In this document: positions 2,710 to 36,805 of the stretch, piece by piece
Layout of the letters: every line of letters begins with the position of its first letter
Position numbering within the stretch: the stretch's first letter is position 1
From: Escherichia coli
GTDB taxonomy: Bacteria > Pseudomonadota > Gammaproteobacteria > Enterobacterales > Enterobacteriaceae
Assembly (NCBI RefSeq): GCF_030384885.1
Contig: NZ_CP128613.1
DNA length: 64,000 nt
Reading direction: 5' to 3' (one strand)
Program-made: the position numbers and the translations under genes
Notes under the pieces: model-generated
What the model saw: the letters and a program-made list of their open reading frames with translations, nothing else
Told to the model about the DNA's origin: nothing
The model's database searches: none

Positions 2710-4389
2710 TTATTGCGGGTAAGGCACCCAGTCGCCGCCGTTCAGGCGAACGTACGGTTTATCCTGGTATTGAATAACTACTGCATTTGAGTTCTCGGAG
2801 ACCGGTGCTGTTTGTGGCAACCCACTGGTGAGTTTTTTCCAGTCAACATTGTCTTCGGTGAAAATCTTACCATCAAGAACGCGAACCACCAGATCGGAGA
2901 TAGCCAGGAAGCTGCTCGGTTGGTTGATGACAATCGGTGCCCCCTGATGTGGTGCCTTCATGCCGAAGAATTTCACCCCAACGGGGACGTCTGTGATAGA
3001 CGGGCTAGGGATATCACGTAGGCCAGATACCTGCATTCTGTCGCCCTTCAGCGCGCCACCGTGTTCCGGCACCACTACCACCATCACTTTACGACCCGAT
3101 TTCTCCAGTTCAGTAAAGAAGGCGTCCAGCTCATCAAAGAATTTCTGCGCTCGCGCTTTGTAATCCGCTGTTTTGCTGACGCCCGGATAATGGTTGCCGT
3201 CATGCAGTGGAAGCGTGTTGTAGAACGTGGCACTACGGCTGTTTTTATCTTTTTCGGTAACGTCCAGCCAGCGGTTAAGCACGGCGGTATCGTCATAAAC
3301 CGGCGAACCATCAAAGCCCAACAAAATAACCGGCAGATTTGTTTGATCCATCAATTCGGTCTGCATGCCGCCATTTTCGCGAACTTCTTTCAAAAAACCG
3401 CCGAACTGGCCGTTATGTCCCATCATCAGGTGCTGGGTAAAGCCCAGTTTCGACAGGTTATCAAACAGATAGCAGTCGTTATTTGCCGGTTGATACAGAT
3501 TAGTGTGCGAAGTCTGCCCGCAGCTGGCGCGCAGTAAACGGATCGCTGCCGGGCCACTGTAGGAGGTGGCGGAGTTAAAGTTCTTGAACTCAATATCGAA
3601 ATGCGACCACAGCGGATGCGACATCAACCCGGCGGCTTCAATATCCGACCAGGAAAGCGAACAGATATTAATCACCAGTAGTTCAAATGGCTGAGCATCA
3701 GCGGGCAGCGAAGACGGGAAGGTCGATTTACGTTTCGCCTCCGCGTTATAGAAATTATTCAGCCAGGCGTTAAGGTTCGCCGTTGTTGGCGGTGCAGTTT
3801 GTGCGGGCATATCACCCACTACCGGTGCGCCACCCGTCGCCGCAACGGTTGCCGCTGCGTTACCACCCGTCGTTGTTACAGTGGTCGTCGGTTGACCGGC
3901 AGGCCACAAGGAGAAACTTGGTCCCGCCAGGGTAAGTACGTTCAGCCATAGCAGAATGGCAACCACAAAAACGGTAATGCGAATCCATTGTGATAGGAAT
4001 AACCAGGCCACTAATAAAACAAAAATGGCCCCAATCATCTGCCAGTTAATAAAGCGTGTGACAAGGTCGATTAAATAATCGGTACTGAACCCCGCCACCT
4101 GCGAACCCTGGCTCATTATGCTTTCCGGGCCAGGCAACCAGGTGTCATGCCAGAACAAAGCAAAGCCGATCGGCAGGGCAATCCAGTGGCGTAAGCGATG
4201 CAGGCTGTAGCGCGGAATGGGCATCAGCAGAAACGCGGCAAACACCAGATTGAGGAGCGGATGGAAGTTAAGATATCCCGCCCACAACAGGCCGAACTTA
4301 ACCAGAAAATAGAAGTTCCAGCCGGAAAGGCCGCGCCAGTATTGCCAGAGGGAAGAAGGCATGGCGGTATTTTGCGTAAATTGAGTCAT
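2710..4389 (-). CDS. bcsG: Cellulose phosphoethanolamine transferase BcsG (559 aa)
   Basis: ORF track; N-terminal TM helices plus alkaline-phosphatase-like periplasmic domain; size and position (bcsEFG operon) match. Confidence 0.9.
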
Positions 4390-4577
4390 TTTTTGGTTGC
4401 CCTGGCTTTTTCCGTGCGGCGTAACGTCCCGGCCGGTTTAACATAACGAGGTTTAGCAAAGAACAAACGTAAGGTGTCGCGAATGCGTCGCAAAGAGTGC
4501 CGCGCCAGATAGCCCAGCGGGAAAAATATCAGTGCGCAAACGACAATAATTTCAATGATATCGCTGATGGTCATCAT
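4386..4577 (-). CDS. bcsF: Cellulose biosynthesis small membrane protein BcsF (63 aa)
   Basis: 63-aa ORF overlapping bcsG start by 4 nt and bcsE stop by 4 nt (translational coupling); single TM helix. Confidence 0.85.
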
Positions 4578-6145
4578 GATGAGCGCTCCACAGTATCATC
4601 TAACAGTCGCATTGGTTCTGGTATTCTTCGCCAGTGGCGACCATCGTGCTCGGCATTGATGACCGGTTTAGAACTTTGCGTTAAAGGCAGCGGCATGCCC
4701 CATTGTTCTGGAGCAAGCAGGCGCATCTGCACCAGCTCGGCACTGATTTGATCATCTTCAAACCAGACCATACGGTTTGAGAAAATGTCGCCAGTCGGCA
4801 ATGGGAAAATATGATTCAACGCGGTATCCAGATCGTTAATCCGACAGAATGAGAGAAACAGCACCAGCCGATTACCGCCAATGGTCATGATATCGCCGGT
4901 ACGGTTAGGGCGACACAGCGTCAGGGCTTGCTCAACGCGGATACCCGGTACCGGACGTAGGGCAACCAGAACGCCTTTACCATGTGCAGGCAAGAGAGGG
5001 TTATTCATCATGTTGTTAACGGCATTACAGAACACATCCCACTTCTGGAAACCACGTAGTTTGAGCGGCTGGGTCATTGACAGCAAGGTAGTGATATCTT
5101 CCGGCACATAGCGACTAAACTTCTGCCCTTGCACGCTTTCGATCATCGTCAGACAGCGGGAGAGTGGCGCATTCCACGGGATAACCATATTTGCACCGCA
5201 GGCCAATAACAAACGTTCATCGGTGGCGCGCAAGCTTGCGGTATTTTCCCGTACGAGGATTTTCATCGCACTACCGCGCTGGCGACGCAGAGTATGAATG
5301 CTGCGGGCCAGTGGCTCGATTTGCGCATTTTGCTGTAAAGAAAAGACCACCGTTGCCGCCTGAGCGGTACGGGCTTCATTGAACAGAATTTCGTTATTGT
5401 TGAACAGTTGCCAGTGTTCCGATAGCGGCGGCGCACCTTCCAGTACAGCAACATTACTCAGAATGCGTTTTTCGTCGCTGCGTGGTTGGATCTCCGCCTC
5501 TTCGCTTTGAACTAATGTCCAGATACCTTTTTGTTGCTGAACGCTAAGCTGCTGACGGGCGCTGACCCCTTTTTCGTTGCACCAGAAGGCAATATCCAGC
5601 AAATGTTGGTCGCCCTGAAAACGCAAACTGGCAAGACCAAAAAGTGAACGGTATTCCTCAAGCAACAATGAAAATTGTTTATCGTTATTATTTCCGGGAT
5701 TAATTACCAAAAGCGAACAATGGTTTAACCTGCTCCATTTATTCATTTTATCCAACCATGAGCGAAGCCGCTCGGCAGGAATGTTTTGCCATGCGTTATT
5801 TGCGCAAACAAGAATAAAAAGGTAATTATTGGGAACAATAGAACACTGCAAATCACGGGCCAAATAGTATAGACCTTTTTCATGATTTAGCATTGAAAAT
5901 AATTTTATTTTTTCCGGCCCTTGAGAATCATCTAATTGAAAGATTTTCGCCGGATCGCTGTCCATGCTAATGACCGCGACGTGTGCGGTTTCAGCCTGGG
6001 ATGCAATTGTTTGATTCGCCAGACTGATAGCATCTTCATGGCGATCGACGTTAAACCACCAGACGCCGCCTGCTGGCATATGTCGCAGCTCATCCCATAA
6101 TGATGAGATACCGATAGAGAATACAGGGTCCACAATGTCCCTCAT
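4574..6145 (-). CDS. bcsE: c-di-GMP-binding cellulose biosynthesis protein BcsE (523 aa)
   Basis: ORF track 523 aa; first gene of bcsEFG, divergent from bcsR. Confidence 0.9.
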
Positions 6146-6416
6146 GTCACCATTTTGTCTGATTATCAGTTTACTAGCGAAAGCTAAGAAATAAACCTAC
6201 CATTGAAATTAAAACTTATCAGATTTAGCATGTGAATCAATTTAGCAGGTCACAAGACGTGTGATTTTAGTCTTTTCGTTTTTAACTTTTTTTGTTGCGT
6301 AACGGAAAGTCAAAAAGTGAGCAAATTCCCGTCTCGCCGTAAACAATAAACCGGCGAAATGCTCACGGTTAGAATTGTCTCATGAACGGTGCGGTTATTT
6401 CATAGGGATCAAGCAA

Positions 6417-6605
6417 ATGAATAACAATGAACCAGATACTCTGCCTGATCCCGCGATAGGCTATATCTTCCAGAATGATATTTTGGCGTTAAAGCAGGCG
6501 TTTTCACTGCCTGATATTGATTATGCCGATATTTCCCAACGCGAACAGTTGGCCGCGGCATTAAAACGCTGGCCGTTGCTGGCAGAGTTTGCGCAACAAA
6601 AGTAG
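6417..6605 (+). CDS. bcsR: Cellulose biosynthesis protein BcsR (62 aa)
   Basis: ATG at 6417 inside track ORF 6375..6605 (MNNNEPDTLPDP...); immediately upstream of bcsQ. Confidence 0.8.
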   Translation: MNNNEPDTLPDPAIGYIFQNDILALKQAFSLPDIDYADISQREQLAAALKRWPLLAEFAQQK

Positions 6606-6616
6606 GGGATTGGTGA

Positions 6617-7369
6617 ATGGCCGTACTGGGATTGCAGGGGGTGCGGGGAGGCGTGGGAACAACAACCATCACTGCCGCATTAGCCTGGTCATTACAAATG
6701 TTGGGAGAAGATGTCCTGGTGGTCGATGCCTGCCCGGACAACTTGTTGCGCCTGTCATTTAACGTTGATTTTACCCACCGTCAGGGCTGGGCCAGAGCCA
6801 TGCTGGACGGTCAGGACTGGCGTGACGCCGGGTTGCGCTATACCTCGCAACTCGATTTGCTGCCTTTTGGTCAGTTATCCATTGAAGAACAAGAAAATCC
6901 ACAGCACTGGCAAACCCGGCTGAGCGATATTTGCTCCGGCTTACAGCAACTAAAAGCCAGCGGGCGTTACCAGTGGATTTTAATCGACTTACCGCGTGAT
7001 GCCTCGCAGATAACCCACCAGCTGCTGAGTTTGTGCGATCACTCGCTGGCAATCGTCAATGTGGATGCCAACTGCCATATCCGGCTGCATCAGCAGGCGC
7101 TGCCGGATGGCGCGCATATTTTGATTAATGACTTCCGCATTGGCAGTCAGGTTCAGGACGATATTTACCAGCTTTGGTTGCAAAGCCAGCGCCGATTACT
7201 GCCAATGCTCATTCATCGTGATGAAGCGATGGCTCAATGCCTGGCGGCTAAGCAACCAGTCGGTGAATACCGCAGTGATGCGCTGGCGGCTGAAGAGATA
7301 CTGACGCTGGCTAACTGGTGCCTGTTGAACTATTCCGGGCTGAAAACGCCAGTCGGGAGTGCATCATGA
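6617..7369 (+). CDS. bcsQ: Cellulose synthase operon protein BcsQ (ParA/MinD-like ATPase), intact 250 aa
   Basis: Full-length ORF; codon 6 is TTG (Leu), not the TAG stop found in K-12. Confidence 0.9.
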   Translation: MAVLGLQGVRGGVGTTTITAALAWSLQMLGEDVLVVDACPDNLLRLSFNVDFTHRQGWARAMLDGQDWRDAGLRYTSQLDLLPFGQLSIEEQENPQHWQTRLSDICSGLQQLKASGRYQWILIDLPRDASQITHQLLSLCDHSLAIVNVDANCHIRLHQQALPDGAHILINDFRIGSQVQDDIYQLWLQSQRRLLPMLIHRDEAMAQCLAAKQPVGEYRSDALAAEEILTLANWCLLNYSGLKTPVGSAS

Positions 7370-9984
7370 GTATCCTGACCCGGTGGTTGCTTATCCCGCC
7401 GGTCAACGCGCGGCTTATCGGGCGTTATCGCGATTATCGTCGTCACGGCGCGTCGGCTTTCAGCGCGACGCTCGGCTGTTTTTGGTTGATCCTGGCCTGG
7501 ATTTTTATTCCGCTGGAGCACCCGCGCTGGCAGCGTATTCGCGCAGAACATAAAAACCTGTATCCGCATATCAACGCCTCGCGTCCGCGTCCGCTGGACC
7601 CGGTCCGTTATCTCATTCAAACATGCTGGTTACTGATCGGTACATCGCGCAAAGAAACGCCGAAACCGCGCAGGCGGACATTTTCAGGTCTGCAGAATAT
7701 TCGTGGACGTTACCATCAATGGATGAACGAGCTGCCTGAGCGCGTTAGCCATAAAACACAGCATCTCGATGAGAAAAAAGAACTCGGCCATTTGAGCGCC
7801 GGGGCGCGGCGGTTGATCCTCGGTATCATCGTCACCTTCTCGCTGATTCTGGCGTTAATCTGCGTTACCCAGCCGTTTAACCCGCTGGCGCAGTTTATCT
7901 TCCTGATGCTGCTGTGGGGTGTAGCGCTGATCGTACGGCGGATGCCGGGGCGCTTCTCGGCGCTAATGTTGATTGTGCTGTCGCTGACCGTTTCTTGCCG
8001 TTATATCTGGTGGCGCTACACCTCTACGCTGAACTGGGACGATCCGGTCAGTCTGGTGTGCGGGCTTATACTGCTGTTCGCTGAAACGTACGCGTGGATT
8101 GTGCTGGTGCTCGGCTACTTCCAGGTGGTATGGCCGCTGAATCGTCAGCCAGTACCGTTGCCGAAAGATATGTCGCTGTGGCCGTCGGTAGATATCTTTG
8201 TCCCGACTTACAACGAAGATCTCAACGTGGTGAAAAATACGATTTACGCCTCGCTGGGTATCGACTGGCCGAAAGACAAGCTGAACATCTGGATCCTCGA
8301 TGACGGCGGCAGGGAAGAGTTTCGCCAGTTTGCACAAAACGTGGGGGTGAAATATATCGCCCGTACCACTCATGAACATGCGAAAGCAGGCAACATCAAC
8401 AATGCGCTGAAATATGCCAAAGGCGAGTTCGTGTCGATTTTCGACTGCGACCACGTGCCGACGCGCTCATTCCTGCAAATGACCATGGGCTGGTTCCTGA
8501 AAGAAAAACAGTTGGCGATGATGCAGACGCCGCACCACTTCTTCTCACCGGATCCGTTTGAACGTAACTTGGGGCGTTTTCGTAAAACGCCAAACGAAGG
8601 CACGCTGTTTTATGGTCTGGTGCAGGACGGCAATGATATGTGGGATGCCACTTTCTTCTGCGGTTCCTGTGCGGTGATTCGTCGTAAGCCGCTGGATGAG
8701 ATTGGCGGCATTGCTGTCGAAACGGTAACCGAAGATGCGCATACTTCTCTGCGTTTGCACCGTCGTGGCTACACCTCTGCATATATGCGTATTCCGCAGG
8801 CGGCGGGGCTGGCGACCGAAAGTCTGTCGGCGCATATCGGTCAGCGTATTCGCTGGGCGCGCGGGATGGTGCAAATCTTCCGTCTCGATAACCCGCTCAC
8901 CGGTAAAGGGCTGAAGTTTGCTCAGCGGCTGTGCTACGTCAACGCCATGTTCCATTTCTTGTCGGGCATTCCACGACTGATCTTTCTGACTGCGCCGCTG
9001 GCGTTCCTGCTGCTGCATGCCTACATCATCTACGCGCCTGCGTTAATGATCGCTCTGTTTGTGCTGCCGCATATGATTCACGCCAGCCTGACCAACTCGA
9101 AGATTCAGGGTAAATATCGCCACTCTTTCTGGAGCGAAATCTACGAAACGGTACTGGCGTGGTATATCGCACCACCGACGCTGGTGGCGCTGATTAACCC
9201 GCACAAAGGCAAATTTAACGTCACCGCCAAAGGTGGACTGGTGGAAGAAGAGTACGTCGACTGGGTGATCTCACGGCCCTACATTTTCCTGGTATTGCTC
9301 AACCTGGTCGGTATTGCGGTCGGTATCTGGCGTTACTTCTACGGCCCGCCAACCGAGATGCTCACTGTCATCGTCAGTATGGTGTGGGTGTTCTACAACC
9401 TGATTATTCTCGGTGGTGCGGTAGCGGTATCGGTAGAAAGCAAACAGGTTCGCCGATCGCACCGCGTGGAGATGACGATGCCCGCGGCAATTGCCCGCGA
9501 AGATGGTCACCTCTTCTCGTGTACCGTTCAGGATTTCTCCGACGGTGGTTTGGGGATCAAGATCAACGGTCAGGCACAGATTCTGGAAGGGCAGAAAGTG
9601 AATCTGTTGCTTAAACGCGGTCAGCAAGAATACGTCTTCCCGGCCCAGGTGGCGCGCGTGATGGGTAATGAAGTTGGGCTGAAATTAATGCCGCTCACCA
9701 CCCAGCAACATATCGATTTTGTGCAGTGTACGTTTGCCCGTGCGGATACATGGGCGCTCTGGCAGGACAGCTATCCGGAAGATAAGCCGCTGGAAAGTCT
9801 GCTGGATATTCTGAAGCTCGGCTTCCGTGGCTACCGCCATCTGGCGGAGTTTGCGCCTTCTTCGGTGAAGGGCATATTCCGTGTGCTGACTTCTCTGGTT
9901 TCCTGGGTTGTATCGTTTATTCCGCGCCGCCCGGCGCGGAGCGAAACGGCACAACCATCGGATCAGGCTTTGGCTCAACAATGA
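7366..9984 (+). CDS. bcsA: Cellulose synthase catalytic subunit BcsA (872 aa, GT2 + PilZ)
   Basis: ATG at 7366 (MSILTRWLL...) overlapping bcsQ stop (ATGA); GT2 motifs (DDG, DCD, QTPH, QRIRW) and C-terminal PilZ. Confidence 0.95.
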   Translation: MSILTRWLLIPPVNARLIGRYRDYRRHGASAFSATLGCFWLILAWIFIPLEHPRWQRIRAEHKNLYPHINASRPRPLDPVRYLIQTCWLLIGTSRKETPKPRRRTFSGLQNIRGRYHQWMNELPERVSHKTQHLDEKKELGHLSAGARRLILGIIVTFSLILALICVTQPFNPLAQFIFLMLLWGVALIVRRMPGRFSALMLIVLSLTVSCRYIWWRYTSTLNWDDPVSLVCGLILLFAETYAWIVLVLGYFQVVWPLNRQPVPLPKDMSLWPSVDIFVPTYNEDLNVVKNTIYASLGIDWPKDKLNIWILDDGGREEFRQFAQNVGVKYIARTTHEHAKAGNINNALKYAKGEFVSIFDCDHVPTRSFLQMTMGWFLKEKQLAMMQTPHHFFSPDPFERNLGRFRKTPNEGTLFYGLVQDGNDMWDATFFCGSCAVIRRKPLDEIGGIAVETVTEDAHTSLRLHRRGYTSAYMRIPQAAGLATESLSAHIGQRIRWARGMVQIFRLDNPLTGKGLKFAQRLCYVNAMFHFLSGIPRLIFLTAPLAFLLLHAYIIYAPALMIALFVLPHMIHASLTNSKIQGKYRHSFWSEIYETVLAWYIAPPTLVALINPHKGKFNVTAKGGLVEEEYVDWVISRPYIFLVLLNLVGIAVGIWRYFYGPPTEMLTVIVSMVWVFYNLIILGGAVAVSVESKQVRRSHRVEMTMPAAIAREDGHLFSCTVQDFSDGGLGIKINGQAQILEGQKVNLLLKRGQQEYVFPAQVARVMGNEVGLKLMPLTTQQHIDFVQCTFARADTWALWQDSYPEDKPLESLLDILKLGFRGYRHLAEFAPSSVKGIFRVLTSLVSWVVSFIPRRPARSETAQPSDQALAQQ

Positions 9985-9994
9985 TGATAACGCG

Positions 9995-12334
9995 ATGAAA
10001 AGAAAACTATTCTGGATTTGTGCAGTGGCTATGGGGATGAGTGCGTTCCCCTCTTTCATGACGCAGGCGACGCCAGCAACGCAACCACTGATCAATGCTG
10101 AGCCAGCTGTAGCCGCCCAGACGGAACAAAATCCGCAGGTGGGGCAAGTGATGCCGGGCGTGCAGGGCGCTAATGCCCCCATCGTGGCGCAGAACGGTCC
10201 TTCGCGTGATGTGAAGCTGACCTTTGCGCAAATTGCGCCACCGCCGGGCAGCATGGTGCTACGTGGCATTAACCCGAACGGCAGCATTGAGTTTGGTATG
10301 CGCAGCGATGAAGTGGTGACGAAGGCGATGCTCAACCTCGAATACACGCCATCGCCATCGTTACTGCCTGTCCAGTCGCAGTTAAAGGTTTATCTCAATG
10401 ATGAACTGATGGGCGTGCTGCCAGTGACCAAAGAACAGTTGGGTAAAAAAACGCTGGCACAAATGCCAATTAACCCACTGTTTATTACCGACTTCAACCG
10501 TGTGCGGCTGGAGTTTGTCGGTCATTATCAGGACGTGTGCGAAAACCCGGCCAGCACCACGCTTTGGCTGGATGTTGGGCGGAGCAGTGGACTGGATCTG
10601 ACCTATCAGACCCTGAATGTGAAGAATGATCTGTCACACTTCCCGGTACCATTCTTTGACCCGCGTGATAACCGCACCAACACCTTGCCGATGGTCTTTG
10701 CGGGTGCGCCGGATGTTGGGCTGCAACAAGCATCTGCCATTGTCGCCTCGTGGTTTGGTTCGCGTTCTGGCTGGCGTGGGCAGAACTTCCCGGTGCTCTA
10801 TAACCAACTGCCGGATCGCAATGCCATCGTTTTTGCCACTAATGACAAACGCCCGGACTTCCTGCGCGATCATCCGGCGGTAAAAGCCCCGGTGATTGAG
10901 ATGATCAACCATCCACAGAATCCTTACGTCAAACTGCTGGTGGTCTTTGGTCGTGACGACAAAGACCTGTTGCAGGCAGCAAAAGGTATCGCTCAGGGTA
11001 ACATTCTGTTCCGTGGTGAAAGCGTGGTAGTGAATGAAGTAAAACCGCTGCTACCGCGTAAGCCGTACGATGCGCCGAACTGGGTGCGTACCGATCGCCC
11101 GGTCACCTTTGGTGAACTAAAAACCTATGAAGAACAGTTACAATCCAGCGGTCTTGAGCCAGCAGCGATTAACGTTTCGCTAAACCTGCCGCCGGATCTC
11201 TACCTGATGCGCAGTACCGGCATTGATATGGATATCAACTATCGCTACACCATGCCGCCGGTGAAAGACAGTTCGCGGATGGATATCAGCCTGAATAACC
11301 AGTTCCTGCAATCCTTCAACCTGAGCAGTAAACAGGAGGCGAACCGCCTGCTGCTGCGTATTCCGGTATTACAAGGTTTGCTGGATGGCAAAACGGATGT
11401 CTCTATTCCGGCGCTGAAACTGGGCGCGACCAACCAGTTGCGGTTCGACTTTGAGTATATGAACCCGATGCCGGGCGGTTCGGTGGATAACTGTATTACC
11501 TTCCAGCCGGTGCAGAATCATGTGGTGATTGGTGACGACTCCACCATCGACTTCTCGAAGTATTACCACTTCATCCCGATGCCGGATCTACGCGCCTTTG
11601 CTAACGCGGGCTTCCCGTTCAGCCGGATGGCGGATCTGTCACAAACCATCACCGTGATGCCGAAAGCGCCTAACGAAGCACAGATGGAAACCTTGCTGAA
11701 TACCGTTGGCTTTATCGGTGCGCAGACGGGCTTCCCGGCGATTAACCTGACGGTGACCGATGATGGCAGCACCATTCAGGGCAAAGATGCCGACATCATG
11801 ATCATCGGTGGTATCCCGGACAAACTGAAAGACGACAAGCAGATCGACCTGTTGGTGCAGGCGACCGAAAGCTGGGTGAAAACGCCGATGCGCCAGACCC
11901 CGTTCCCCGGCATTGTGCCGGACGAGAGCGATCGCGCGGCAGAAACTCAATCAACGCTGACCTCTTCCGGTGCGATGGCAGCGGTGATTGGCTTCCAGTC
12001 GCCGTATAACGACCAGCGTAGCGTGATTGCGCTGCTGGCAGATAGCCCACGCGGTTATGAAATGCTTAACGATGCGGTGAACGATAGCGGCAAACGCGCC
12101 ACCATGTTCGGCTCGGTCGCGGTGATCCGCGAGTCCGGTATCAATAGCCTGCGTGTTGGCGACGTCTATTACGTTGGCCATCTGCCGTGGTTCGAACGCT
12201 TATGGTATGCGCTGGCAAACCATCCGATTCTGCTGGCAGTGCTGGCGGCAATCAGCGTCGTGCTGCTGGCCTGGGTACTGTGGCGTTTGCTGCGTATTAT
12301 CAGCCGTCGTCGTCTTAACCCGGATAACGAGTAA
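9995..12334 (+). CDS. bcsB: Cellulose synthase periplasmic subunit BcsB (779 aa)
   Basis: ATG at 9995 (MKRKLFWICAVAMGMSA... signal peptide) within track ORF 9908..12334. Confidence 0.9.
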   Translation: MKRKLFWICAVAMGMSAFPSFMTQATPATQPLINAEPAVAAQTEQNPQVGQVMPGVQGANAPIVAQNGPSRDVKLTFAQIAPPPGSMVLRGINPNGSIEFGMRSDEVVTKAMLNLEYTPSPSLLPVQSQLKVYLNDELMGVLPVTKEQLGKKTLAQMPINPLFITDFNRVRLEFVGHYQDVCENPASTTLWLDVGRSSGLDLTYQTLNVKNDLSHFPVPFFDPRDNRTNTLPMVFAGAPDVGLQQASAIVASWFGSRSGWRGQNFPVLYNQLPDRNAIVFATNDKRPDFLRDHPAVKAPVIEMINHPQNPYVKLLVVFGRDDKDLLQAAKGIAQGNILFRGESVVVNEVKPLLPRKPYDAPNWVRTDRPVTFGELKTYEEQLQSSGLEPAAINVSLNLPPDLYLMRSTGIDMDINYRYTMPPVKDSSRMDISLNNQFLQSFNLSSKQEANRLLLRIPVLQGLLDGKTDVSIPALKLGATNQLRFDFEYMNPMPGGSVDNCITFQPVQNHVVIGDDSTIDFSKYYHFIPMPDLRAFANAGFPFSRMADLSQTITVMPKAPNEAQMETLLNTVGFIGAQTGFPAINLTVTDDGSTIQGKDADIMIIGGIPDKLKDDKQIDLLVQATESWVKTPMRQTPFPGIVPDESDRAAETQSTLTSSGAMAAVIGFQSPYNDQRSVIALLADSPRGYEMLNDAVNDSGKRATMFGSVAVIRESGINSLRVGDVYYVGHLPWFERLWYALANHPILLAVLAAISVVLLAWVLWRLLRIISRRRLNPDNE

Positions 12335-12340
12335 TTGAAG

Positions 12341-13447
12341 ATGAATGTGTTGCGTAGTGGACTCGTGACGATGCTGCTGCTGGCTGCCTTTAGTGTTCAG
12401 GCAGCCTGCAACTGGCCTGCCTGGGAGCAGTTCAAAAAGGATTACATCAGTCAGGAAGGGCGCGTCATCGACCCCAGCGACGCGCGCAAAATCACCACCT
12501 CCGAAGGGCAAAGTTACGGCATGTTCTTTGCCCTGGCGGCTAACGACCGTGCAGCTTTCGATAATATTCTCGACTGGACGCAGAACAATCTCGCTCAGGG
12601 TTCTTTAAAAGAACATTTGCCCGCCTGGCTGTGGGGCAAGAAAGAGAACAGTAAGTGGGAAGTGCTGGACAGCAATTCGGCCTCTGATGGTGATGTCTGG
12701 ATGGCCTGGTCACTGCTGGAGGCGGGGCGTTTGTGGAAAGAGCAGCGTTATACCGACATCGGCAGCGCGTTGTTAAAACGTATTGCGCGGGAGGAAGTGG
12801 TGACGGTGCTTGGGCTGGGTTCCATGTTGTTGCCGGGCAAAGTGGGATTTGCTGAGGATAACAGCTGGCGTTTTAACCCCAGCTACCTGCCGCCGACGCT
12901 GGCGCAGTATTTCACCCGCTTTGGCGCGCCGTGGACTACGCTGCGCGAAACCAATCAACGTTTATTGCTGGAAACCGCCCCGAAAGGCTTTTCGCCAGAC
13001 TGGGTGCGCTATGAGAAAGACAAAGGCTGGCAGCTAAAAGCCGAAAAAACATTGATCAGCAGCTACGACGCTATCCGTGTTTACATGTGGGTAGGCATGA
13101 TGCCTGACAGCGATCCGCAAAAAGCGCGGATGCTCAACCGGTTTAAACCGATGGCGACATTCACCGAGAAAAACGGCTATCCGCCGGAAAAAGTCGATGT
13201 GGCTACGGGGAAAGCGCAGGGTAAAGGACCGGTCGGTTTTTCTGCCGCCATGCTGCCCTTTTTACAAAACCGCGATGCACAGGCCGTTCAGCGCCAGCGC
13301 GTGGCCGATAACTTTCCCGGCAGCGATGCCTATTACAACTATGTGCTGACCCTGTTTGGACAAGGCTGGGATCAACACCGTTTCCGCTTCTCGACAAAAG
13401 GTGAGTTATTACCTGACTGGGGCCAGGAATGCGCAAATTCACACTAA
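12341..13447 (+). CDS. bcsZ: Endo-1,4-beta-glucanase BcsZ (GH8, 368 aa)
   Basis: [21 protein letters not shown] signal peptide; GH8 family sequence; position after bcsB. Confidence 0.9.
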
Positions 13448-16400
13448 ACATATTCACGCTTTCCCTCGGTCTGGCCGTCATTCCGATGGTTGAGGCAGCA
13501 CCAACCGCTCAGCAACAGTTGCTGGAGCAAGTTCGGTTAGGCGAAGCGACCCATCGTGAAGACCTGGTGCAACAGTCGTTGTATCGGCTGGAACTTATTG
13601 ATCCGAATAACCCGGACGTCGTTGCCGCCCGTTTCCGTTCTCTGTTACGTCAGGGCGATATTGATGGCGCGCAAAAACAGCTCGATCGGCTGTCGCAGTT
13701 AGCGCCGAGTTCAAATGCGTATAAATCGTCGCGGACCACAATGTTACTTTCTACGCCGGATGGTCGTCAGGCACTGCAACAGGCAAGATTGCAGGCGACT
13801 ACCGGTCATGCAGAAGAAGCTGTGGCGAGTTACAACAAGCTGTTCAACGGTGCGCCGCCAGAAGGTGATATTGCCGTCGAGTACTGGAGTACGGTGGCGA
13901 AAATTCCGGCTCGCCGTGGCGAAGCGATTAATCAGCTAAAACGCATTAATGCGGATACGCCGGGCAATACGGGCCTGCAAAACAATCTGGCGCTATTGCT
14001 GTTTAGTAGCGATCGGCGTGATGAAGGTTTTGCTGTACTGGAGCAGATGGCGAAATCGAACGCCGGGCGCGAGGGAGCCTCTAAAATCTGGTACGGGCAG
14101 ATTAAAGACATGCCTGTCAGCGATGCCAGCGTGCAGGCGCTGAAAAAATATCTCTCTATCTTTAGCGATGGCGACAGCGTAGCTGCTGCGCAATCGCAAC
14201 TGGCAGAACAGCAAAAACAGCTGGCCGACCCTGCTTTCCGCGCTCGTGCGCAAGGTTTAGCGGCAGTGGACTCTGGCATGGCGGGTAAAGCCATTCCCGA
14301 ACTACAACAGGCAGTGCGGGCGAACCCGAAAGACAGTGAGGCACTGGGGGCGCTGGGCCAGGCGTATTCTCAGAAAGGCGATCGCGCCAATGCGGTGGCG
14401 AATCTGGAAAAAGCCCTCGCACTGGACCCGCACAGCAGCAACAACGACAAATGGAACAGTCTGCTGAAAGTAAACCGCTACTGGCTGGCGATCCAGCAGG
14501 GTGATGCCGCGCTGAAAGCCAATAATCCTGACCGGGCAGAACGCCTGTTCCAGCAGGCGCGTAACGTTGATAATACTGACAGCTATGCAGTGTTGGGGCT
14601 GGGCGATGTGGCGATGGCGCGAAAAGATTATTCCGCCGCCGAACGCTATTACCAGCAGACCTTGCGTATGGACAGCGGCAACACTAACGCCGTGCGCGGG
14701 CTGGCGAATATTTACCGCCAGCAGTCGCCAGAAAAAGCAGAAGCGTTTATCGCCTCGCTCTCTGCCAGCCAGCGGCGCAGCATTGATGATATCGAACGTA
14801 GCCTGCAAAACGATCGTCTGGCACAGCAGGCAGAGGCACTGGAAAACCAGGGCAAATGGGCGCAGGCAGCAGCACTTCAGCGGCAACGACTGGCACTGGA
14901 CCCCGGCAGTGTATGGATTACTTACCGACTTTCGCAGGATCTCTGGCAGGCCGGACAACGCAGCCAGGCTGATACATTAATGCGCAATCTGGCACAGCAG
15001 AAGCCGAACGACCCGGAGCAGGTTTACGCTTACGGGCTGTACCTCTCAGGTCACGACCAGGACAGAGCGGCACTGGCTCATATCAACAGCCTGCCGCGCG
15101 CGCAGTGGAACAGCAATATTCAGGAGCTGGTTAATCGGCTGCAAAGCGACCAGGTGCTGGAAACCGCTAATCGCCTGCGAGAAAACGGTAAAGAGGCAGA
15201 AGCAGAAGCGATGCTGCGCCAGCAACCGCCTTCCTCGCGTATTGATCTGACGCTGGCTGACTGGGCGCAACAACGACGTGATTACGCTGCTGCCCGTGCT
15301 GCATATCAGAATGTCCTGACGCGGGAGCCAACTAACGCTGATGCCATTCTTGGCCTGACGGAAGTGGATATCGCTGCCGGTGACAAAGCGGCGGCACGTA
15401 GCCAACTGGCGAAACTGCCTGCCACCGATAACGCCTCCCTGAACACACAGCGGCGCGTGGCGCTGGCGCAGGCGCAGCTTGGCGATACCGCAGCGGCGCA
15501 GCAGACATTTAACAAGCTGATCCCGCAGGCAAAATCTCAGCCACCGTCGATGGAAAGCGCGATGGTACTGCGCGACGGTGCGAAGTTTGAAGCGCAGGCG
15601 GGCGATCCAAAGCAGGCGCTGGAAACCTACAAAGACGCGATGGTCGCATCCGGTGTGACCACGACGCGTCCGCAGGATAACGACACCTTTACCCGGCTGA
15701 CCCGTAACGACGAGAAAGATGACTGGCTGAAACGCGGCGTGCGCAGCGATGCAGCGGACCTCTATCGCCAGCAGGATCTTAACGTCACCCTCGAGCACGA
15801 TTACTGGGGGTCGAGCGGCACCGGTGGTTACTCCGATCTGAAAGCGCACACCACCATGTTGCAGGTGGACGCACCGTATTCTGACGGGCGGATGTTCTTT
15901 CGCAGTGATTTCGTCAATATGAACGTCGGCAGTTTCTCCACTAATGCCGATGGCAAATGGGATGACAACTGGGGCACCTGTACATTACAGGACTGTAGCG
16001 GCAACCGCAGCCAGTCGGATTCCGGTGCCAGCGTGGCGGTCGGCTGGCGAAATGACGTCTGGAGCTGGGATATCGGCACCACGCCGATGGGCTTCAACGT
16101 GGTGGATGTGGTCGGCGGCATCAGTTACAGTGATGATATCGGGCCGCTGGGTTACACCGTTAACGCCCATCGTCGGCCCATTTCCAGTTCTTTGCTGGCC
16201 TTTGGCGGGCAAAAAGACTCCCCGAGCAATACCGGGAAAAAATGGGGTGGCGTGCGTGCTGATGGCGTAGGACTAAGCCTGAGCTACGATAAAGGTGAAG
16301 CAAACGGCGTCTGGGCATCGCTTAGCGGCGACCAGTTAACCGGTAAAAATGTTGAAGATAACTGGCGTGTGCGCTGGATGACGGGCTATTACTATAAGGT

Positions 16401-16902
16401 CATCAACCAGAACAATCGCCGCGTGACAATCGGCCTGAACAACATGATCTGGCATTACGACAAAGACCTGAGTGGGTACTCACTCGGTCAGGGCGGTTAC
16501 TACAGCCCGCAGGAATACCTGTCGTTTGCCATTCCGGTGATGTGGCGTGAGCGGACAGAAAACTGGTCGTGGGAGCTGGGGGCGTCTGGTTCGTGGTCGC
16601 ATTCGCGCACCAAAACCATGCCGCGGTATCCGCTGATGAATCTGATCCCGACTGACTGGCAGGAAGAAGCTGCGCGGCAATCCAACGATGGCGGCAGCAG
16701 TCAGGGCTTTGGCTATACGGCGCGGGCATTACTTGAGCGTCGCGTCACATCCAACTGGTTTGTCGGTACGGCAATTGATATCCAGCAGGCGAAAGATTAC
16801 GCGCCCAGCCATTTCCTGCTCTACGTACGTTATTCCGCCGCCGGATGGCAGGGTGACATGGATTTACCGCCGCAGCCGCTGATACCTTACGCCGACTGGT
16901 AA
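13429..16902 (+). CDS. bcsC: Cellulose synthase outer-membrane/TPR subunit BcsC (1157 aa)
   Basis: ORF track; signal peptide, long TPR region, C-terminal beta-barrel; overlaps bcsZ end by 19 nt. Confidence 0.95.
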
Positions 16903-16983: not shown

Positions 16984-18972
16984 TTGCGCGTAAGTCGCTC
17001 GTTAACAATCAAGCAGATGGCAATGGTGGCAGCCGTTGTCCTGGTGTTCGTTTTTATTTTTTGCACCGTTTTGCTGTTCCATCTGGTCCAGCAGAATCGC
17101 TATAACACGGCTACGCAACTGGAAAGCATTGCTCGCTCTGTCCGCGAACCCTTATCTTCTGCCATTTTGAAAGGCGATATTCCCGAAGCGGAAGCTATTC
17201 TTGCCAGCATTAAACCGGCAGGCGTGGTCAGCCGTGCCGATGTGGTGCTGCCTAACCAGTTCCAGGCGCTGCGTAAAAGTTTTATTCCAGAGCGTCCGGT
17301 GCCGGTAATGGTTACTCGCATGTTTGAGCTACCGGTGCAAATCTCGCTGGGCGTTTACTCGCTGGAACGTCCGGCAAACCCGCAGCCAATTGCCTATCTG
17401 GTGCTACAGGCGGATTCCTTCCGCATGTATAAGTTCGTGATGAGCACCCTCTCAACGTTAGTGACCATTTACTTACTTTTGTCGTTAATATTGACGGTGG
17501 CGATTAGCTGGTGCATTAACCGCCTGATTTTGCATCCGTTACGCAATATTGCTCGTGAACTTAACGCCATCCCAGCCCAGGAGCTTGTTGGTCACCAACT
17601 GGCATTACCACGTCTGCATCAGGACGATGAAATCGGTATGCTGGTGCGCAGTTACAACCTCAACCAGCAATTGCTGCAGCGCCATTATGAAGAACAGAAC
17701 GAAAATGCGATGCGCTTCCCGGTGTCGGATTTGCCGAACAAAGCCTTGCTGATGGAGATGCTGGAGCAGGTTGTCGCGCGTAAACAAACCACCGCGCTGA
17801 TGATTATCACCTGTGAAACCCTGCGTGATACTGCGGGCGTGCTGAAAGAGGCGCAACGAGAAATTCTGCTGCTGACGCTGGTGGAAAAACTCAAATCGGT
17901 ACTGTCGCCACGTATGATCCTCGCGCAAATTAGTGGTTATGACTTTGCTGTCATTGCCAACGGTGTACAGGAACCGTGGCATGCTATTACTTTAGGTCAG
18001 CAAGTGCTCACTATCATGAGCGAGCGCCTGCCGATTGAACGTATTCAACTTCGTCCGCACTGTAGCATTGGCGTGGCGATGTTCTACGGCGATCTCACCG
18101 CCGAACAGCTTTACAGTCGCGCTATTTCTGCGGCATTTACCGCTCGCCATAAAGGTAAGAATCAGATTCAGTTCTTTGATCCGCAGCAGATGGAAGCCGC
18201 CCAACAGCGGTTGACGGAAGAGAGCGATATCCTTAATGCACTGGAAAATCATCAGTTTGCGATTTGGTTACAGCCACAGGTCGAGATGACCAGCGGTAAA
18301 CTGGTCAGTGCGGAAGTGTTACTGCGTATCCAGCAACCGGATGGCAGTTGGGATCTGCCGGATGGCTTAATCGATCGCATTGAGTGCTGTGGGCTGATGG
18401 TTACCGTCGGTCACTGGGTGCTGGAAGAGTCCTGTCGACTGCTGGCTGCCTGGCAAGAGCGCGGCATTATGTTGCCCTTGTCGGTAAACCTCTCAGCGCT
18501 GCAACTGATGCACCCGAATATGGTAGCGGATATGCTGGAACTGTTAACCCGCTATCGCATTCAGCCGGGAACACTGATTCTGGAAGTGACAGAAAGCCGA
18601 CGTATTGACGACCCTCATGCAGCGGTGGCAATCCTCCGCCCGTTGCGTAATGCCGGCGTTCGGGTGGCGCTGGATGATTTCGGCATGGGCTACGCAGGGC
18701 TGCGTCAGCTGCAGCATATGAAATCGTTGCCAATCGACGTGTTAAAAATCGACAAAATGTTTGTTGAAGGCTTGCCGGAAGATAGCAGCATGATTGCTGC
18801 AATTATCATGTTGGCGCAAAGCCTGAACTTACAAATGATTGCCGAAGGCGTGGAGACTGAAGCACAACGCGACTGGCTGGCAAAAGCGGGCGTTGGTATT
18901 GCCCAGGGCTTCCTTTTTGCTCGCCCACTCCCTATTGAAATCTTCGAAGAGAGTTACCTGGAAGAAAAGTAG
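16984..18972 (+). CDS. pdeK: c-di-GMP phosphodiesterase PdeK/YhjK (HAMP - degenerate GGDEF - EAL), start probably TTG
   Basis: ORF track 662 aa beginning at TTG 16984 preceded by gggggga RBS; EAL motifs present (ELTE..., DDFGMGYAG); alternative ATG starts at 17017/17023. Confidence 0.8.
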
Positions 18973-22157: not shown

Positions 22158-22360
22158 TAAATCACCCGGCAGCGTTTCTTCTGCGCTGCCGGGATTAACG
22201 GTAATAAATTAGTTACCGTGATATAACCGCAGATATTTTTCCTGGCACGGCGGTAGCGCGCAGATAACCATTCATTATTAAAATAAACTTACCGTAGAGT
22301 GGGTTTAATTATTTATTAGCTGAATAAATTATACCGGTGCCTCCTGGAAGGAGTGAGTTT

Positions 22361-22786
22361 ATGCTTGTGTTAAAATCACAATCGATTGGATTCAGGATTT
22401 CCACAGCTTATTTATCTTTAACATATACAGAGTCTGATGGCGTCAAGATTAAAGTAGATGCTCTGGAGTTAATATCAACAGAGAGAGATTATGTTCAAAT
22501 TGAACTGGTCTTCACTACTGTTGCTGAAGTTAAGTGTGCTACCGTCAATTTTTATGAAGCCAACTATAACAATATTGTTATTAAGAAGGTTGATGGTGAA
22601 AATCTGGACTCCGGTATATATCAAGTAATGAATTCTGTACCGCTTGAAGAAAAAGAGAAATTATATGATCCTAAAAAACGGTTGAAGTTAAAACATTATA
22701 TTATAGCAGGTTATGATAGTTATGTTGAGATTTTAGCTACTGGTTTTAGCTGTATACGATGCCAGGCAATAGATGGTGTTAAATAA
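22361..22786 (+). CDS. Hypothetical protein (141 aa), AT-rich accessory ORF 1
   Basis: ATG at 22361 preceded by ggaaggagtg RBS (track ORF 22337..22786); low GC; no recognised family. Confidence 0.5.
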   Translation: MLVLKSQSIGFRISTAYLSLTYTESDGVKIKVDALELISTERDYVQIELVFTTVAEVKCATVNFYEANYNNIVIKKVDGENLDSGIYQVMNSVPLEEKEKLYDPKKRLKLKHYIIAGYDSYVEILATGFSCIRCQAIDGVK

Positions 22787-23040
22787 TGGCCTATCATATA
22801 GAAATATTGAAAATTGAAGAAACTGATAAAGTAGTAAAATATGAATTTGGACCTACATCTTCTGACTATTGTAGATCTGATTACGGCGAATTCGTGATAG
22901 ATAAAAGAACGGGTGAGATGACATTAGTCAGAATGGTTAAAAACGATTCAGCTAATAAATTTTATTTGCGAGCGAGTTTTAAGATTCTGACCTGTTGGCG
23001 AAAGGGCTATTTGCCAAAAAATGAGGAATGGGCTTCTTAA
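22786..23040 (+). CDS. Hypothetical protein (84 aa), AT-rich accessory ORF 2
   Basis: ATG overlaps stop of ORF 1 (TAATG), suggesting translational coupling. Confidence 0.45.
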   Translation: MAYHIEILKIEETDKVVKYEFGPTSSDYCRSDYGEFVIDKRTGEMTLVRMVKNDSANKFYLRASFKILTCWRKGYLPKNEEWAS

Positions 23041-23139
23041 TAAGTAACTTTGCAGAATAAGTGAATTTTCCCATTTTTTTGGGGGCAGTCGTTGATTCTT
23101 ACACAGTTTATGTTATGGGTGCCAAATTTAGGATAGGCT

Positions 23140-23619
23140 ATGGATTTTCACTTGGATATTTTGCTCCCTACACAATTCGCTCCAGAGGAACTAGATCTAC
23201 AAGAGGTTATGATTCACTGGGGTGGGGAAACCTTTCATCGCGACCCTCCGGTATACGCCTGGTGTAATCATCATCTTTTGCAGAGATGCAATCTACCGAT
23301 TACTTATGGCCCACCTTTAGATGAGCACATAGACTTTAATGAATATCATGTTTACAACTTCAATGGTTCTTTAGTCGATGACCTGGAAATGGCTGTGAAT
23401 AAAGGAAAGGATATTTCAACCAATCCTATAATTAAATTTATTAACAACCTGGTTAGCAAAAATTACGGGGGGTGGGTAATCTTGTCATTAGATGATGAAA
23501 AAATAGAAGTGATTAAAAATATAAGCTTCCAGTATTCTTTTCTATCATTATTAGTTGATGGACTAAAATGGGAAAGACCGCATGGGGTGGCAATATTATA
23601 TAATTCACACTTAATTTAA
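23140..23619 (+). CDS. Hypothetical protein (159 aa), AT-rich accessory ORF 3
   Basis: ORF track; low GC; no recognised family. Confidence 0.45.
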   Translation: MDFHLDILLPTQFAPEELDLQEVMIHWGGETFHRDPPVYAWCNHHLLQRCNLPITYGPPLDEHIDFNEYHVYNFNGSLVDDLEMAVNKGKDISTNPIIKFINNLVSKNYGGWVILSLDDEKIEVIKNISFQYSFLSLLVDGLKWERPHGVAILYNSHLI

Positions 23620-23640
23620 TTAATTAATGAATGGAAACAT

Positions 23641-23943
23641 ATGTATCGTGTAAAGGTTGTTTGGCTTACAGAAAATGAAGGTGGCAGAAGGAGCGCACCT
23701 CCTATCGGTAGATATTATCCCGTCTCCAGGTTTCCAGAGGAGAAAACTGACTGGCAAAATAATGCATGGAGTGTTGTTTTTGAATTGGAAAAACCTAATG
23801 TAACCGATGGACGTATCGTTTCAATGGGGTGCGTTCAGTTCCTTTTCGATACCGCCCCTGAACAATGGATGACTAAGTACGAGGCATTTGAGATCTACGA
23901 AGGACCAAGAAAAGTCGCAGATGTATTATTGATAGGGAATTAA
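23641..23943 (+). CDS. Hypothetical protein (100 aa), AT-rich accessory ORF 4
   Basis: ORF track; 21 nt after ORF 3; low GC. Confidence 0.45.
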   Translation: MYRVKVVWLTENEGGRRSAPPIGRYYPVSRFPEEKTDWQNNAWSVVFELEKPNVTDGRIVSMGCVQFLFDTAPEQWMTKYEAFEIYEGPRKVADVLLIGN

Positions 23944-24004
23944 TTTTATTTATGTCAGGCTATTTAATTATATTTGCGACCTCAACGCATTTTCAGGAGT
24001 ATAA

Positions 24005-24538
24005 ATGCGTAACAAAAAACGCATACTATTCTTGCTAACAGTCATTTTTTGCTTAACAGGTCTTTATTCCTGCAACAAAAATTTTCTCTTACTCTGGGAT
24101 GCCAATAATATGTATGTCAGCACAAGAAATAATATCGATAAAGACAAGGTAAAAATAGAATTCGGTATCAGCGTCAACACGATCAACCGAGAAACGGATG
24201 CCGAATTATTTGCTGACAGAGATAAGTATGCAGTGCTCTTCGATGGTAGCCTGAAAAATAAGATGATAAGCGAATACGGAGAAAATGATTTTTTAATTAC
24301 CTACGATAACCGCTGCTATTTATCATTTCGTCAATTTAAAACAAATCGTCGTCATCAACATGACTATTATTTTGACTTCTTTAACAAGGATGGGAATGTC
24401 TTCGTCACGGTCGAAATTAAAGGTGAGAACCCGCTTAAATTTACGCGTAGTTTTAATGATATGCGTCAGCAGTTTTCACCATTCCGTAAGGGTAGCCCTT
24501 CTCACTCCTGCAAGGTTATTTCTTCAGATCCTTCTTAA
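24005..24538 (+). CDS. Hypothetical exported protein, possible lipoprotein (177 aa), AT-rich accessory ORF 5
   Basis: N-terminal signal peptide MRNKKRILFLLTVIFCLTGLYSC with Cys after hydrophobic core; ggagt RBS upstream; 3' end overlaps convergent gene by 23 nt. Confidence 0.5.
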   Translation: MRNKKRILFLLTVIFCLTGLYSCNKNFLLLWDANNMYVSTRNNIDKDKVKIEFGISVNTINRETDAELFADRDKYAVLFDGSLKNKMISEYGENDFLITYDNRCYLSFRQFKTNRRHQHDYYFDFFNKDGNVFVTVEIKGENPLKFTRSFNDMRQQFSPFRKGSPSHSCKVISSDPS

Positions 24539-26510
24539 ACACTGGTTCTGGACAATCACGACCAAAATGCGCCGCCCAGTCAAAAGATTTACCGTTTTTC
24601 ACGTAGCGTTGATAAATTAATGCACCGGTTTCTGGATCAAGATATCTGATCCAACTTGCAGCATGGCATAACACGGCAGCCCAAGCCTGGGTTTTAGGGT
24701 GAAGTAAATCGGCTGATTGTCCGGCCCATTCCGCAGCCTGCCAGCGGTAATGCAAAAAATGCTCATCAACAGTGGGGATTGCGTGGCGGAAACGTTGTTT
24801 TTCTTTACGACTTATCCACTGATCGTTATTGCTGTATTCAAAGGGTTCTGAATACTGCCCGCTGGTAATGGCATAATCGGGATACATTTCATAAGCCGCC
24901 AATTCGATACCACTGAAACGCAAAAGCCGCGCAGCTTCGTATTGCGCCTGGGCGCGTTGCTTATCAGGGATGTTTTTATTTTTTGCTATCGCCATTAAAT
25001 CAGCCAGTTTTTGTGCGGCCTGGCGATAATTGGGAATATCAAACCAATTGATGGCCTGCTGGTACTGGCCATGACGAATTAATCGTCTACCCAATAACGC
25101 CCGTAATTTAACATCCGTTGGAATGATATCTGGCGAAAGATAATAACCGTCATTGTTATTATTTAAATCTACAGGTTTTAAAGGGTGCTGAGGTACCGGT
25201 ACGTTTTTTTCAACAAACGCCTGTAACTCCGGTAAGGTCAAAACGTTTTCTGCAACCCAGGCTAAATCGGCCCAATAGAGATCTTTGGCCTGGTAAAACA
25301 ATGCGGTGGCCTGAAGATAATCATCGCGTTTTAATGCCAAAATCGCCTGCTCACTGGCAATACGGCAAGATGGGATAATAACTTTATCTCCATGATAATA
25401 AGGACTTTCCGGGTCCATACTTCCCCACACTTCATCGGTCGGGAACATCGGGGCTGCGCGAGCATAGTGACGCGTTGCCAGTGGAATATCTCCGGCTCGT
25501 AATGCCATTTTTGCTTTTAACCATTCGCTTAATCCACTTTCTGGCGCATCCTGCAACAGCGTTTGTGCTAACGAATAATTTCCTGCCCGATACGCCAGTG
25601 CTGCCAGGCGATCGCTATAACTAAATCCTTTAACTCTGTGTTGACTTAGCAACTTAATTAAACGGTCGCGATGCGTTGGACAGGTATAATCTACAAGGTC
25701 CTTAGTACAGGCTTCGCTAACATACCCCCAGTCATGACGAATAAAGAGCTCTGCGATTACCAGTTGCTGAACCAGAGAATCATTAATAACCGACTCCAGC
25801 AGTGGTAAATTTTTCTCCCTGGTTATATACAGCGAAATCATCCGTAGCGACGCTTTCCCGGAGGGCGAACCCTGGGCCGCTTGCCGGGCATACATTTTTA
25901 CTGCCGCAGCGACATCACCTTTTTTCAGATAATAATGCCCAATCTGACCGAGACTGGCGAGAGAGAGCAATTCAGGATCGGCTGCGCCATTACGCACTTC
26001 TTCAATGATTTGCTGATAACGCTGTATGGCCTGCTCAGCAAGTTCCTGATTAAAGCCACCTTTATTGATTATAAGATCGAGATCGTCGTCAGAGGCATCA
26101 AATCCCCCCCTTGCCAGACTATATAGCGCAGCCAGCCGCCATTCTCCTTGCTCTGTTTTCGGCAAGGCTAATAATTGCTGAAAGTATGGGCTATCGTATT
26201 TTCCCTGATGGAAATCCTTAGCTCCTGAATAATAAAGTTCCAGTGCCCGATTTTGCACAGGAGGTTCAGCATCTGTATCTGTCTGCGTTGCCTCTTCAGG
26301 CGTATTTTCTTGCCATACTGGTAAACCAGGATCGCGTTTAACCAACTGTTGTACTTCAAAGACAAAACTGCCATTTGGCATTTCCAGCAGTGCGCTATTG
26401 CGGTCAGTTAACAGATGATTGGGAATAAATGGTCCACAGGCATTAACGTTGGCGCTAATTAGCGAGAGAAATACAACAACGGAAAGCCGCGATATTTTAG
26501 GGGATAACAT
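24516..26510 (-). CDS. Secreted helical-repeat (TPR/Sel1-like) protein of unknown function (~664 aa)
   Basis: Track ORF 24516..26735 trimmed to ATG at 26510 (MLSPKISRLSVVVFLSLISANVNA signal peptide, ggagag RBS, 8 nt after stop of upstream gene); Sel1/TPR-like segments (e.g. VKMYARQAAQG) seen by eye. Confidence 0.6.
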   Translation of the reverse strand: MLSPKISRLSVVVFLSLISANVNACGPFIPNHLLTDRNSALLEMPNGSFVFEVQQLVKRDPGLPVWQENTPEEATQTDTDAEPPVQNRALELYYSGAKDFHQGKYDSPYFQQLLALPKTEQGEWRLAALYSLARGGFDASDDDLDLIINKGGFNQELAEQAIQRYQQIIEEVRNGAADPELLSLASLGQIGHYYLKKGDVAAAVKMYARQAAQGSPSGKASLRMISLYITREKNLPLLESVINDSLVQQLVIAELFIRHDWGYVSEACTKDLVDYTCPTHRDRLIKLLSQHRVKGFSYSDRLAALAYRAGNYSLAQTLLQDAPESGLSEWLKAKMALRAGDIPLATRHYARAAPMFPTDEVWGSMDPESPYYHGDKVIIPSCRIASEQAILALKRDDYLQATALFYQAKDLYWADLAWVAENVLTLPELQAFVEKNVPVPQHPLKPVDLNNNNDGYYLSPDIIPTDVKLRALLGRRLIRHGQYQQAINWFDIPNYRQAAQKLADLMAIAKNKNIPDKQRAQAQYEAARLLRFSGIELAAYEMYPDYAITSGQYSEPFEYSNNDQWISRKEKQRFRHAIPTVDEHFLHYRWQAAEWAGQSADLLHPKTQAWAAVLCHAASWIRYLDPETGALIYQRYVKNGKSFDWAAHFGRDCPEPVFKKDLKK

Positions 26511-27705: not shown

Positions 27706-27759
27706 TTGAACCCGGAATCCATGTGGTCAATAACAGAAAGTATACTGCGGAACTATTTA

Positions 27760-27789
27760 GCGGAGAAATTATTCCATTAATTTCTCCGC
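27760..27789. terminator. Perfect hairpin between kdgK 3' end and accessory operon start
   Basis: gcggagaaatta-ttcc-ttaatttctccgc inverted repeat. Confidence 0.4.
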
Positions 27790-27806
27790 TATGATTGATG
27801 TGTTAT

Positions 27807-33305: not shown

Positions 33306-33614
33306 AATCTTTTCTTATTTTTTGGCTAACGAATAGCCATATTACGCACAGCAAAAGTGATATTTCAATGTGTAACAAATCGCGGAGTTGGTCGAAAATC
33401 AGCCAAAAAGGGAATAATGTTTAAGCTGGTGATTTTTCTTCTATGAAATGCTTCACATAATTTCATAAATGGTGGATAAAACTGGTTTTAGGTTAAATAA
33501 AAGTTACCAACTGGATTTATATGCTGGAGTAATGAGTTGGAATGAAATTGTTTGCTCCTAAGAGATGACAGAAAAGGCTCTGGGGAAGAGTTTAAGTGGT
33601 TATGTGCGCATGAT

Positions 33615-33708
33615 AGCCGGATGCGATGCTGGCGCATTTTATCCGGCCTACGGGGAGCCAGGCCGAATAAATTCGTAGGCCGGATAAGGCGTTACGCTGC
33701 ATCCGGCA
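33615..33708. repeat. REP/BIME palindromic element pair
   Basis: agccggatgcg...atccggcctac and gtaggccggataaggcgttacgctgcatccggca. Confidence 0.75.
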
Positions 33709-33712
33709 TATT

Positions 33713-34726: not shown

Positions 34727-34774
34727 CCGCTCATTTATCCTTCTGTCTTTATCATTCTTAAAAAGTATAGTCTG

Positions 34775-36795: not shown

Positions 36796-36805
36796 AGAGG
36801 ATAAT

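Follow-up and report, generated by a model that had tools for sequence, protein, structure and literature searches.

bcsQ is uninterrupted in an Escherichia coli cellulose secretion locus with nine intact bcs genes

The window that we analysed, a 64-kb stretch of Escherichia coli DNA, carries bcsQ on the + strand at 6617..7369, as given by the open reading frame (ORF) and its translation: 250 codons followed by TGA. The 5' end of the gene reads ATG GCC GTA CTG GGA TTG CAG, the sense codons run unbroken to the TGA, and no other long ORF is present in the 6617-7369 frame. Codon 6 (6632..6634, + strand) is TTG, encoding leucine, in an alignment with K-12 C600 and in a codon display of eight strains. 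The chance of a 250-codon open frame is about (61/64)^250, roughly 6e-6, and the ORF is not due to chance. Immediately upstream (6603..6616, + strand, read from the sequence), the TAG stop codon of bcsR (6603-6605) merges into a GGGGA Shine-Dalgarno-like run (to 6609) that lies 7 nt 5' of the bcsQ ATG and is the same in all eight strains aligned. At the other end, the ORF coordinates place the bcsQ stop and the bcsA start in an ATGA overlap (7366..7369, + strand; GCATCATGAGT), an arrangement that fits those typical of translational coupling. The initial annotation had described bcsQ as uninterrupted over 250 codons, and this observation is confirmed: its coordinates, frame, length and TTG at codon 6 are all correct from the sequence and the ORF list.

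The predicted product of 6617-7369 is BcsQ. In a profile search it scored 539 bits against the NCBIfam equivalog NF007460 (cut-off 399), with residues 1-250 of 250 covered, and 293.9 bits against TIGR03371 (cut-off 157.85). It matched PDB 6YBU with E = 4e-167 and 246/250 identical residues (98.4%), and no amino acid separates it from WP_032185391.1, the BcsQ annotated in the human isolate 2020CK-00188. The translation contains the deviant Walker A motif GVRGGVGTTT and keeps all of the ATP-sandwich residues R10, T16, T17, C39, D150, N152, R156 and N171, which are functionally important in BcsQ (PMC7840130). On the basis of the 98.4% identity to the crystallised protein, we would expect the same ATP-dependent dimerisation, binding to BcsR and BcsE, and requirement in secretion.

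In the bcs operon, bcsQ lies between bcsR (yhjR; 6417..6605, + strand; 62 aa; NF040717, 75.8 bits, cut-off 46) and bcsA, which encodes the 872-aa cellulose synthase catalytic subunit (7366..9984, + strand; NF008558, 1792 bits, cut-off 992). Relative to K-12, bcsR has only two differences and a single substitution, V23L, and BcsA has eight substitutions, which are conservative. These genes are followed on the + strand by bcsB (9995..12334; 779 aa, the K-12 length; NF008325, 1387 bits, cut-off 922), the periplasmic endoglucanase gene bcsZ (12341..13447; 368 aa; NF008305, 592 bits, cut-off 299) and bcsC, for the outer-membrane TPR/porin subunit (13429..16902; 1157 aa; NF008520, 2200 bits, cut-off 858). 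BcsB of O157:H7 Gim1-1 is three residues longer, at 782 aa (13647-15995 in the record of that strain). The - strand carries bcsG, named cellulose phosphoethanolamine transferase after the MG1655 record (2710..4389; 559 aa; TIGR03368, 818 bits, cut-off 410), bcsF (4386..4577; 63 aa; TIGR03493, 116 bits, cut-off 56), with DNA identical to that of K-12, and bcsE, for the c-di-GMP-binding regulator (4574..6145; 523 aa; NF011619, 1183 bits, cut-off 929). The divergent intergenic control region between bcsE and bcsR (6146..6416, unstranded), viewed in an eight-strain alignment, has three SNPs and no indel relative to K-12. A G at 6391 (A-to-G), about 26 nt 5' of the bcsR ATG, is absent from all seven comparison strains, and strain 2020CK-00188 has a 1-bp deletion in the same region.

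All nine bcs genes have exactly the K-12 lengths and start with ATG. The initial annotation had also held that bcsRQABZC and bcsEFG are intact; a stop or frameshift, which would have counted against that statement, was sought in all nine genes and none was found. The nine products all score above the NCBIfam curated cut-offs and seven match their profile end to end; the BcsR match runs from residues 20-61 over a 42-position profile, and the BcsG match spans residues 23-557. BcsA keeps DCD360, FFCGS430, TED455 and QRIRW493, the glycosyltransferase motifs (DxD, FFCGS, TED and QxxRW), as well as RRSHR696 and DFSDGG723, the PilZ c-di-GMP motifs RxxxR and DxSxxG. BcsG has its catalytic and zinc-site residues C243, S278, H396, E442 and H443, and BcsE has R415TGD, the I-site RxxD. 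Downstream of bcsC, pdeK (hmsP; 16984..18972, + strand) is a full-length ORF for a 662-aa c-di-GMP phosphodiesterase, as long as pdeK of K-12 and in agreement, in both position and length, with the hmsP annotated in strain 2013C-4282; pdeK acts locally on the cellulose synthase (PMC7397504).

The Bcs proteins each differ from those of K-12 by 0 to 11 amino acids, mostly conservatively, and dN/dS relative to K-12 is 0.02-0.08 for seven of the nine genes (bcsQ, A, B, C, Z, E and G), values that indicate strong, long-term purifying selection. A few substitutions (D104V and N206K in BcsE, D489N in BcsG, D60N in BcsB and M18I in BcsC) were found in none of the seven comparison strains, and none falls on a known functional residue. 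When bcsE was compared with its counterpart in the closest genome, 2013C-4282, three of four nucleotide differences were non-synonymous (D104V, N206K and V253I), numbers too small to interpret; differences in the other bcs genes were almost all synonymous. It is conceivable that one of the missense changes above, or N32D or E207Q in BcsQ, silently impairs secretion or phosphoethanolamine (pEtN) modification. At the changed positions, all or most of the seven comparison strains have another residue, the bcsE counts lean in this direction, and it has been suggested that missense changes may account for the missing cellulose of BL21 and H10407 (PMC5944007). Nevertheless, we consider such a defect very unlikely: the residues and motifs known to be required are all unchanged (PMC7840130 for BcsQ), most of the changes are conservative, relaxed selection could not be read from counts as small as those in bcsE, and an independent human isolate, 2020CK-00188, has the same BcsQ and BcsA proteins.

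The two alleles of codon 6 differ greatly in frequency. Among 5426 complete E. coli genomes, bcsRQ DNA is present in 5303, a 31-mer with TTG at codon 6 matches exactly in 3582, and a 31-mer that matches only if codon 6 is TAG was found in 349. From the latter we sampled 60 genomes, all of which have K-12-like sizes of 4.52-4.70 Mb and most of which carry laboratory names or sources (MG1655, DH5alpha, BW25113, J53, HB101, MC4100 and TG1); a few record other sources, namely mouse gut, chicken and Coffea arabica. The 60 sampled genomes thus look like K-12-type laboratory derivatives. About 1300 genomes have no exact match to either 31-mer. One example, a phylogroup-B2-type strain of serotype O2:K2:H1, has TTG at codon 6 and a synonymous GTT at codon 9, and we infer that synonymous variation of this kind explains all of the approximately 1300 unmatched genomes. 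TTG is also found at codon 6 in seven of seven non-K-12 strains aligned. Because TAG is confined to 349 of 5426 genomes, of K-12-like appearance in the 60 sampled, the TTG in the window is the wild-type state of E. coli, and the window is ordinary in this respect.

The same TTG would be expected if the window came from a K-12 derivative with a repaired codon 6, such as AR3110, which has exactly TTG at this position (PMC7397504). However, the bcs genes other than bcsF are 1.1-4.5% apart from those of K-12 in nucleotides, two features of the window, a segment of 5.6 kb and a second copy of ldr/rdl, are missing from K-12, and the closest genome to the window is that of a clinical isolate, 2013C-4282 (99.46% over all 64 kb). 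A repaired-K-12 origin is therefore vanishingly improbable, and we rejected it on the bcs divergence (bcsF excepted) and on the 5.6-kb segment. The window is collinear with the genome of 2013C-4282 (NZ_CP027579.1; human stool, USA), from which it differs by 347 SNPs and one 1-bp indel; its identity to most other E. coli, K-12 among them, is about 97-98%.

The SNPs relative to 2013C-4282 are strongly clustered, with 20-40 per 2 kb in patches at 6000-16000, 32000-48000 and 62000-64000; the stretch at 16-26 kb is free of them and that at 48-62 kb nearly so. This pattern fits recombination tracts on a near-identical clonal background. One patch spans bcsQ to bcsC, and the bcsQ-bcsC region, where SNPs relative to the closest relative cluster, may be a recombinant tract. 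Such a tract, together with BcsE D104V and N206K, could in principle tune the 'activation-by-proxy' of the synthase by BcsE and BcsRQ, a speculation to which we give an extremely low probability; if it were true, cellulose output or the c-di-GMP threshold would be unlike those of reference strains.

The window has several other features. The segment absent from K-12 MG1655, of about 5.6 kb, lies between yhjJ and kdgK (22160-27810) and holds seven ORFs that are 'hypothetical' in the 2013C-4282 annotation: five small ones on the + strand, one for a 664-aa protein on the - strand with only sub-threshold TPR matches, and one for a 402-aa DUF3142 protein (Pfam). A search of the 22.2-27.8 kb segment against PADLOC and NCBIfam gave no matches, and many other E. 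coli seem to share at least the left part of it. An ldr/rdl type I toxin-antitoxin unit is tandemly duplicated at 1823-2707, with repeat units that are 95% identical and two rdlD antitoxin RNAs on the - strand (1919-1984 and 2402-2467). K-12 has one copy at this locus and the other strains compared have 1 to 4, so the copy number is strain-variable. The small RNAs GadY (43112-43225) and ES205 (49004-49075) and two AgrB-family copies adjoining dinQ (59909-60226) lie in the acid-fitness and dinQ regions, as expected. A 407-aa ORF at 54369-55592 (- strand) overlaps a gene flagged 'frameshifted' in the 2013C-4282 record (4477-5593); as there is no indel between the two sequences at this position, the window is probably in the same 'frameshifted' state.

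In a 141-nt alignment at the start of bcsQ, K-12 C600 and the window show three single-base differences: codon 6 is TAG in C600 and TTG in the window, a change of its middle base, and two synonymous third-position changes lie further downstream. The stop at codon 6 of K-12 bcsQ, stated in the initial annotation, is thus seen directly in C600; it accords with the MG1655 record (NC_000913.3), where bcsQ (b3534) is a pseudogene, and with the literature, which gives the K-12 mutation as 17T>A, TTG to TAG (PMC5944007). This TAG, the mark of the K-12-type pseudogene, is absent from the window. AR3110, obtained from W3110 by putting TTG in place of TAG at codon 6, is cellulose-proficient (PMC7397504, PMC5014196, PMC5944007); PMC7397504 and PMC5014196 cite Serra et al. 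2013 for the repair. Both the K-12 defect and the TAG-to-TTG repair are already published. We also noted that RefSeq/PGAP annotates C600 bcsQ (11293-12021) as a 242-aa coding sequence, WP_011310329.1, that starts at the GTG of codon 9 and bears no pseudogene flag, whereas the curated MG1655 record (15234-15986) lists the same gene as a pseudogene. Automated annotation can thus mask the K-12 bcsQ defect, and codon 6 needs to be read directly.

Taken together, the locus in the window is very probably the type II (E. coli-like) cellulose secretion locus that is normal for wild-type E. coli, with bcsRQABZC, a divergent bcsEFG and an uninterrupted bcsQ. BcsQ, whose Walker A motif is of the deviant kind, belongs to the SIMIBI class (MinD/ParA-like) of ATP-binding proteins, and cellulose secretion is 'absolutely dependent' on BcsR and BcsQ (PMC7840130, PMC11470070). 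In this strain, bcsQ would be translated from its own Shine-Dalgarno-like sequence just past bcsR, with its stop overlapping the bcsA start. As in published structural work, BcsQ and BcsR would form ATP-sandwiched BcsR2Q2 dimers, which would bind the c-di-GMP sensor BcsE and dock on the synthase BcsA, and BcsG, with BcsE and BcsF, would attach phosphoethanolamine to the glucan. The strain would accordingly be genetically competent for pEtN-cellulose, provided that regulators beyond the window are functional.

The same arrangement bears on how the K-12 stop acts. Given the Shine-Dalgarno-like sequence of bcsQ itself and the ATGA overlap, a stop at codon 6 would remove BcsQ and leave about 735 nt untranslated before bcsA. 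Besides removing BcsQ, it could plausibly lower BcsA, the overlap fitting translational coupling. The initial annotation had ascribed the K-12 defect to polarity on bcsA; this is one of two explanations given in secondary sources (PMC5944007), but it is not established. BcsQ is itself essential for secretion (PMC7840130), and its loss alone would therefore suffice for the K-12 defect.

Production of cellulose by this strain, as foreseen in the initial annotation, is a reasonable prediction from the genotype, but it takes more than an intact bcs locus, necessary as that is. In BL21 and H10407 every bcs gene is present and free of nonsense mutations, but no calcofluor signal was detected (PMC5944007). 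DgcC is specifically required for cellulose (PMC7397504, PMC8892547), and RpoS and CsgD act upstream in its control (PMC5014196); according to the annotation of matching regions, none of rpoS, csgD and dgcC is located within the 64-kb window. The strain may thus have an intact bcs locus and still be cellulose-negative or weak in standard assays, for reasons beyond the window: rpoS, csgD, dgcC or other c-di-GMP enzymes may be defective or differently wired, or csgD expression may be restricted by temperature. The precedent of BL21 and H10407, and the dependence on DgcC and on regulators that lie elsewhere in the genome, give this outcome some weight. Against it, every requirement internal to the locus is present, and the strong purifying selection on the bcs genes suggests that the pathway has been in use in the lineage. 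We therefore regard a cellulose-negative or weak phenotype as somewhat unlikely.

bcsQ is a gene already known, and the window carries it in the form usual for wild-type E. coli. Loss-of-function mutations in bcs genes have arisen often and convergently in E. coli: 74 of 76 common sequence types contain them, more than 80% of strains are affected in 14 sequence types, and every ST11 strain examined has one; in some clones, increased virulence has been associated with the loss of cellulose (PMC10881479). O157:H7 Gim1-1, whose bcsQ we found to have a nonsense mutation of independent origin at codon 66 (10269-11021 in its record, with the flag 'internal stop'), fits the published report of ST11 loss-of-function mutations (PMC10881479). 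Because such mutations are common, a fully intact locus is a modestly useful genotype call. With such a locus, the strain is a candidate for making pEtN-cellulose, which is part of the biofilm matrix and has been linked to persistence; beyond routine strain annotation, the call has little import.

Compared with known systems, BcsQ of the window is closest to proteins that are already described. That of E. coli 1094 (PDB 6YBU, 6YAR, 6YAY, 6YB3 and 6YB5; Abidi et al. 2021, PMC7840130) is likewise 250 aa long and has the same Walker A motif GVRGGVGTTT, ATP-sandwich residues and placement between bcsR and bcsA. The two differ by four substitutions, N32D, N172D, E207Q and K249A; D172 and A249 of the window are also the K-12 residues, and D32 and Q207 are common to strain 2020CK-00188. 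No functional difference would be expected from these changes. With K-12 (b3534) and AR3110 the window shares the gene, its length, the ribosome-binding region and the ATGA overlap with bcsA. The K-12 gene differs from that of the window at 21 nt (97.2% identity), and besides codon 6 two amino acids are changed (N32D and E207Q). At codon 6 itself, the window and the repaired allele of AR3110 agree in having TTG. The bcsQ of 2020CK-00188 (WP_032185391.1), which encodes the identical protein, differs from that of the window by only two nucleotides.
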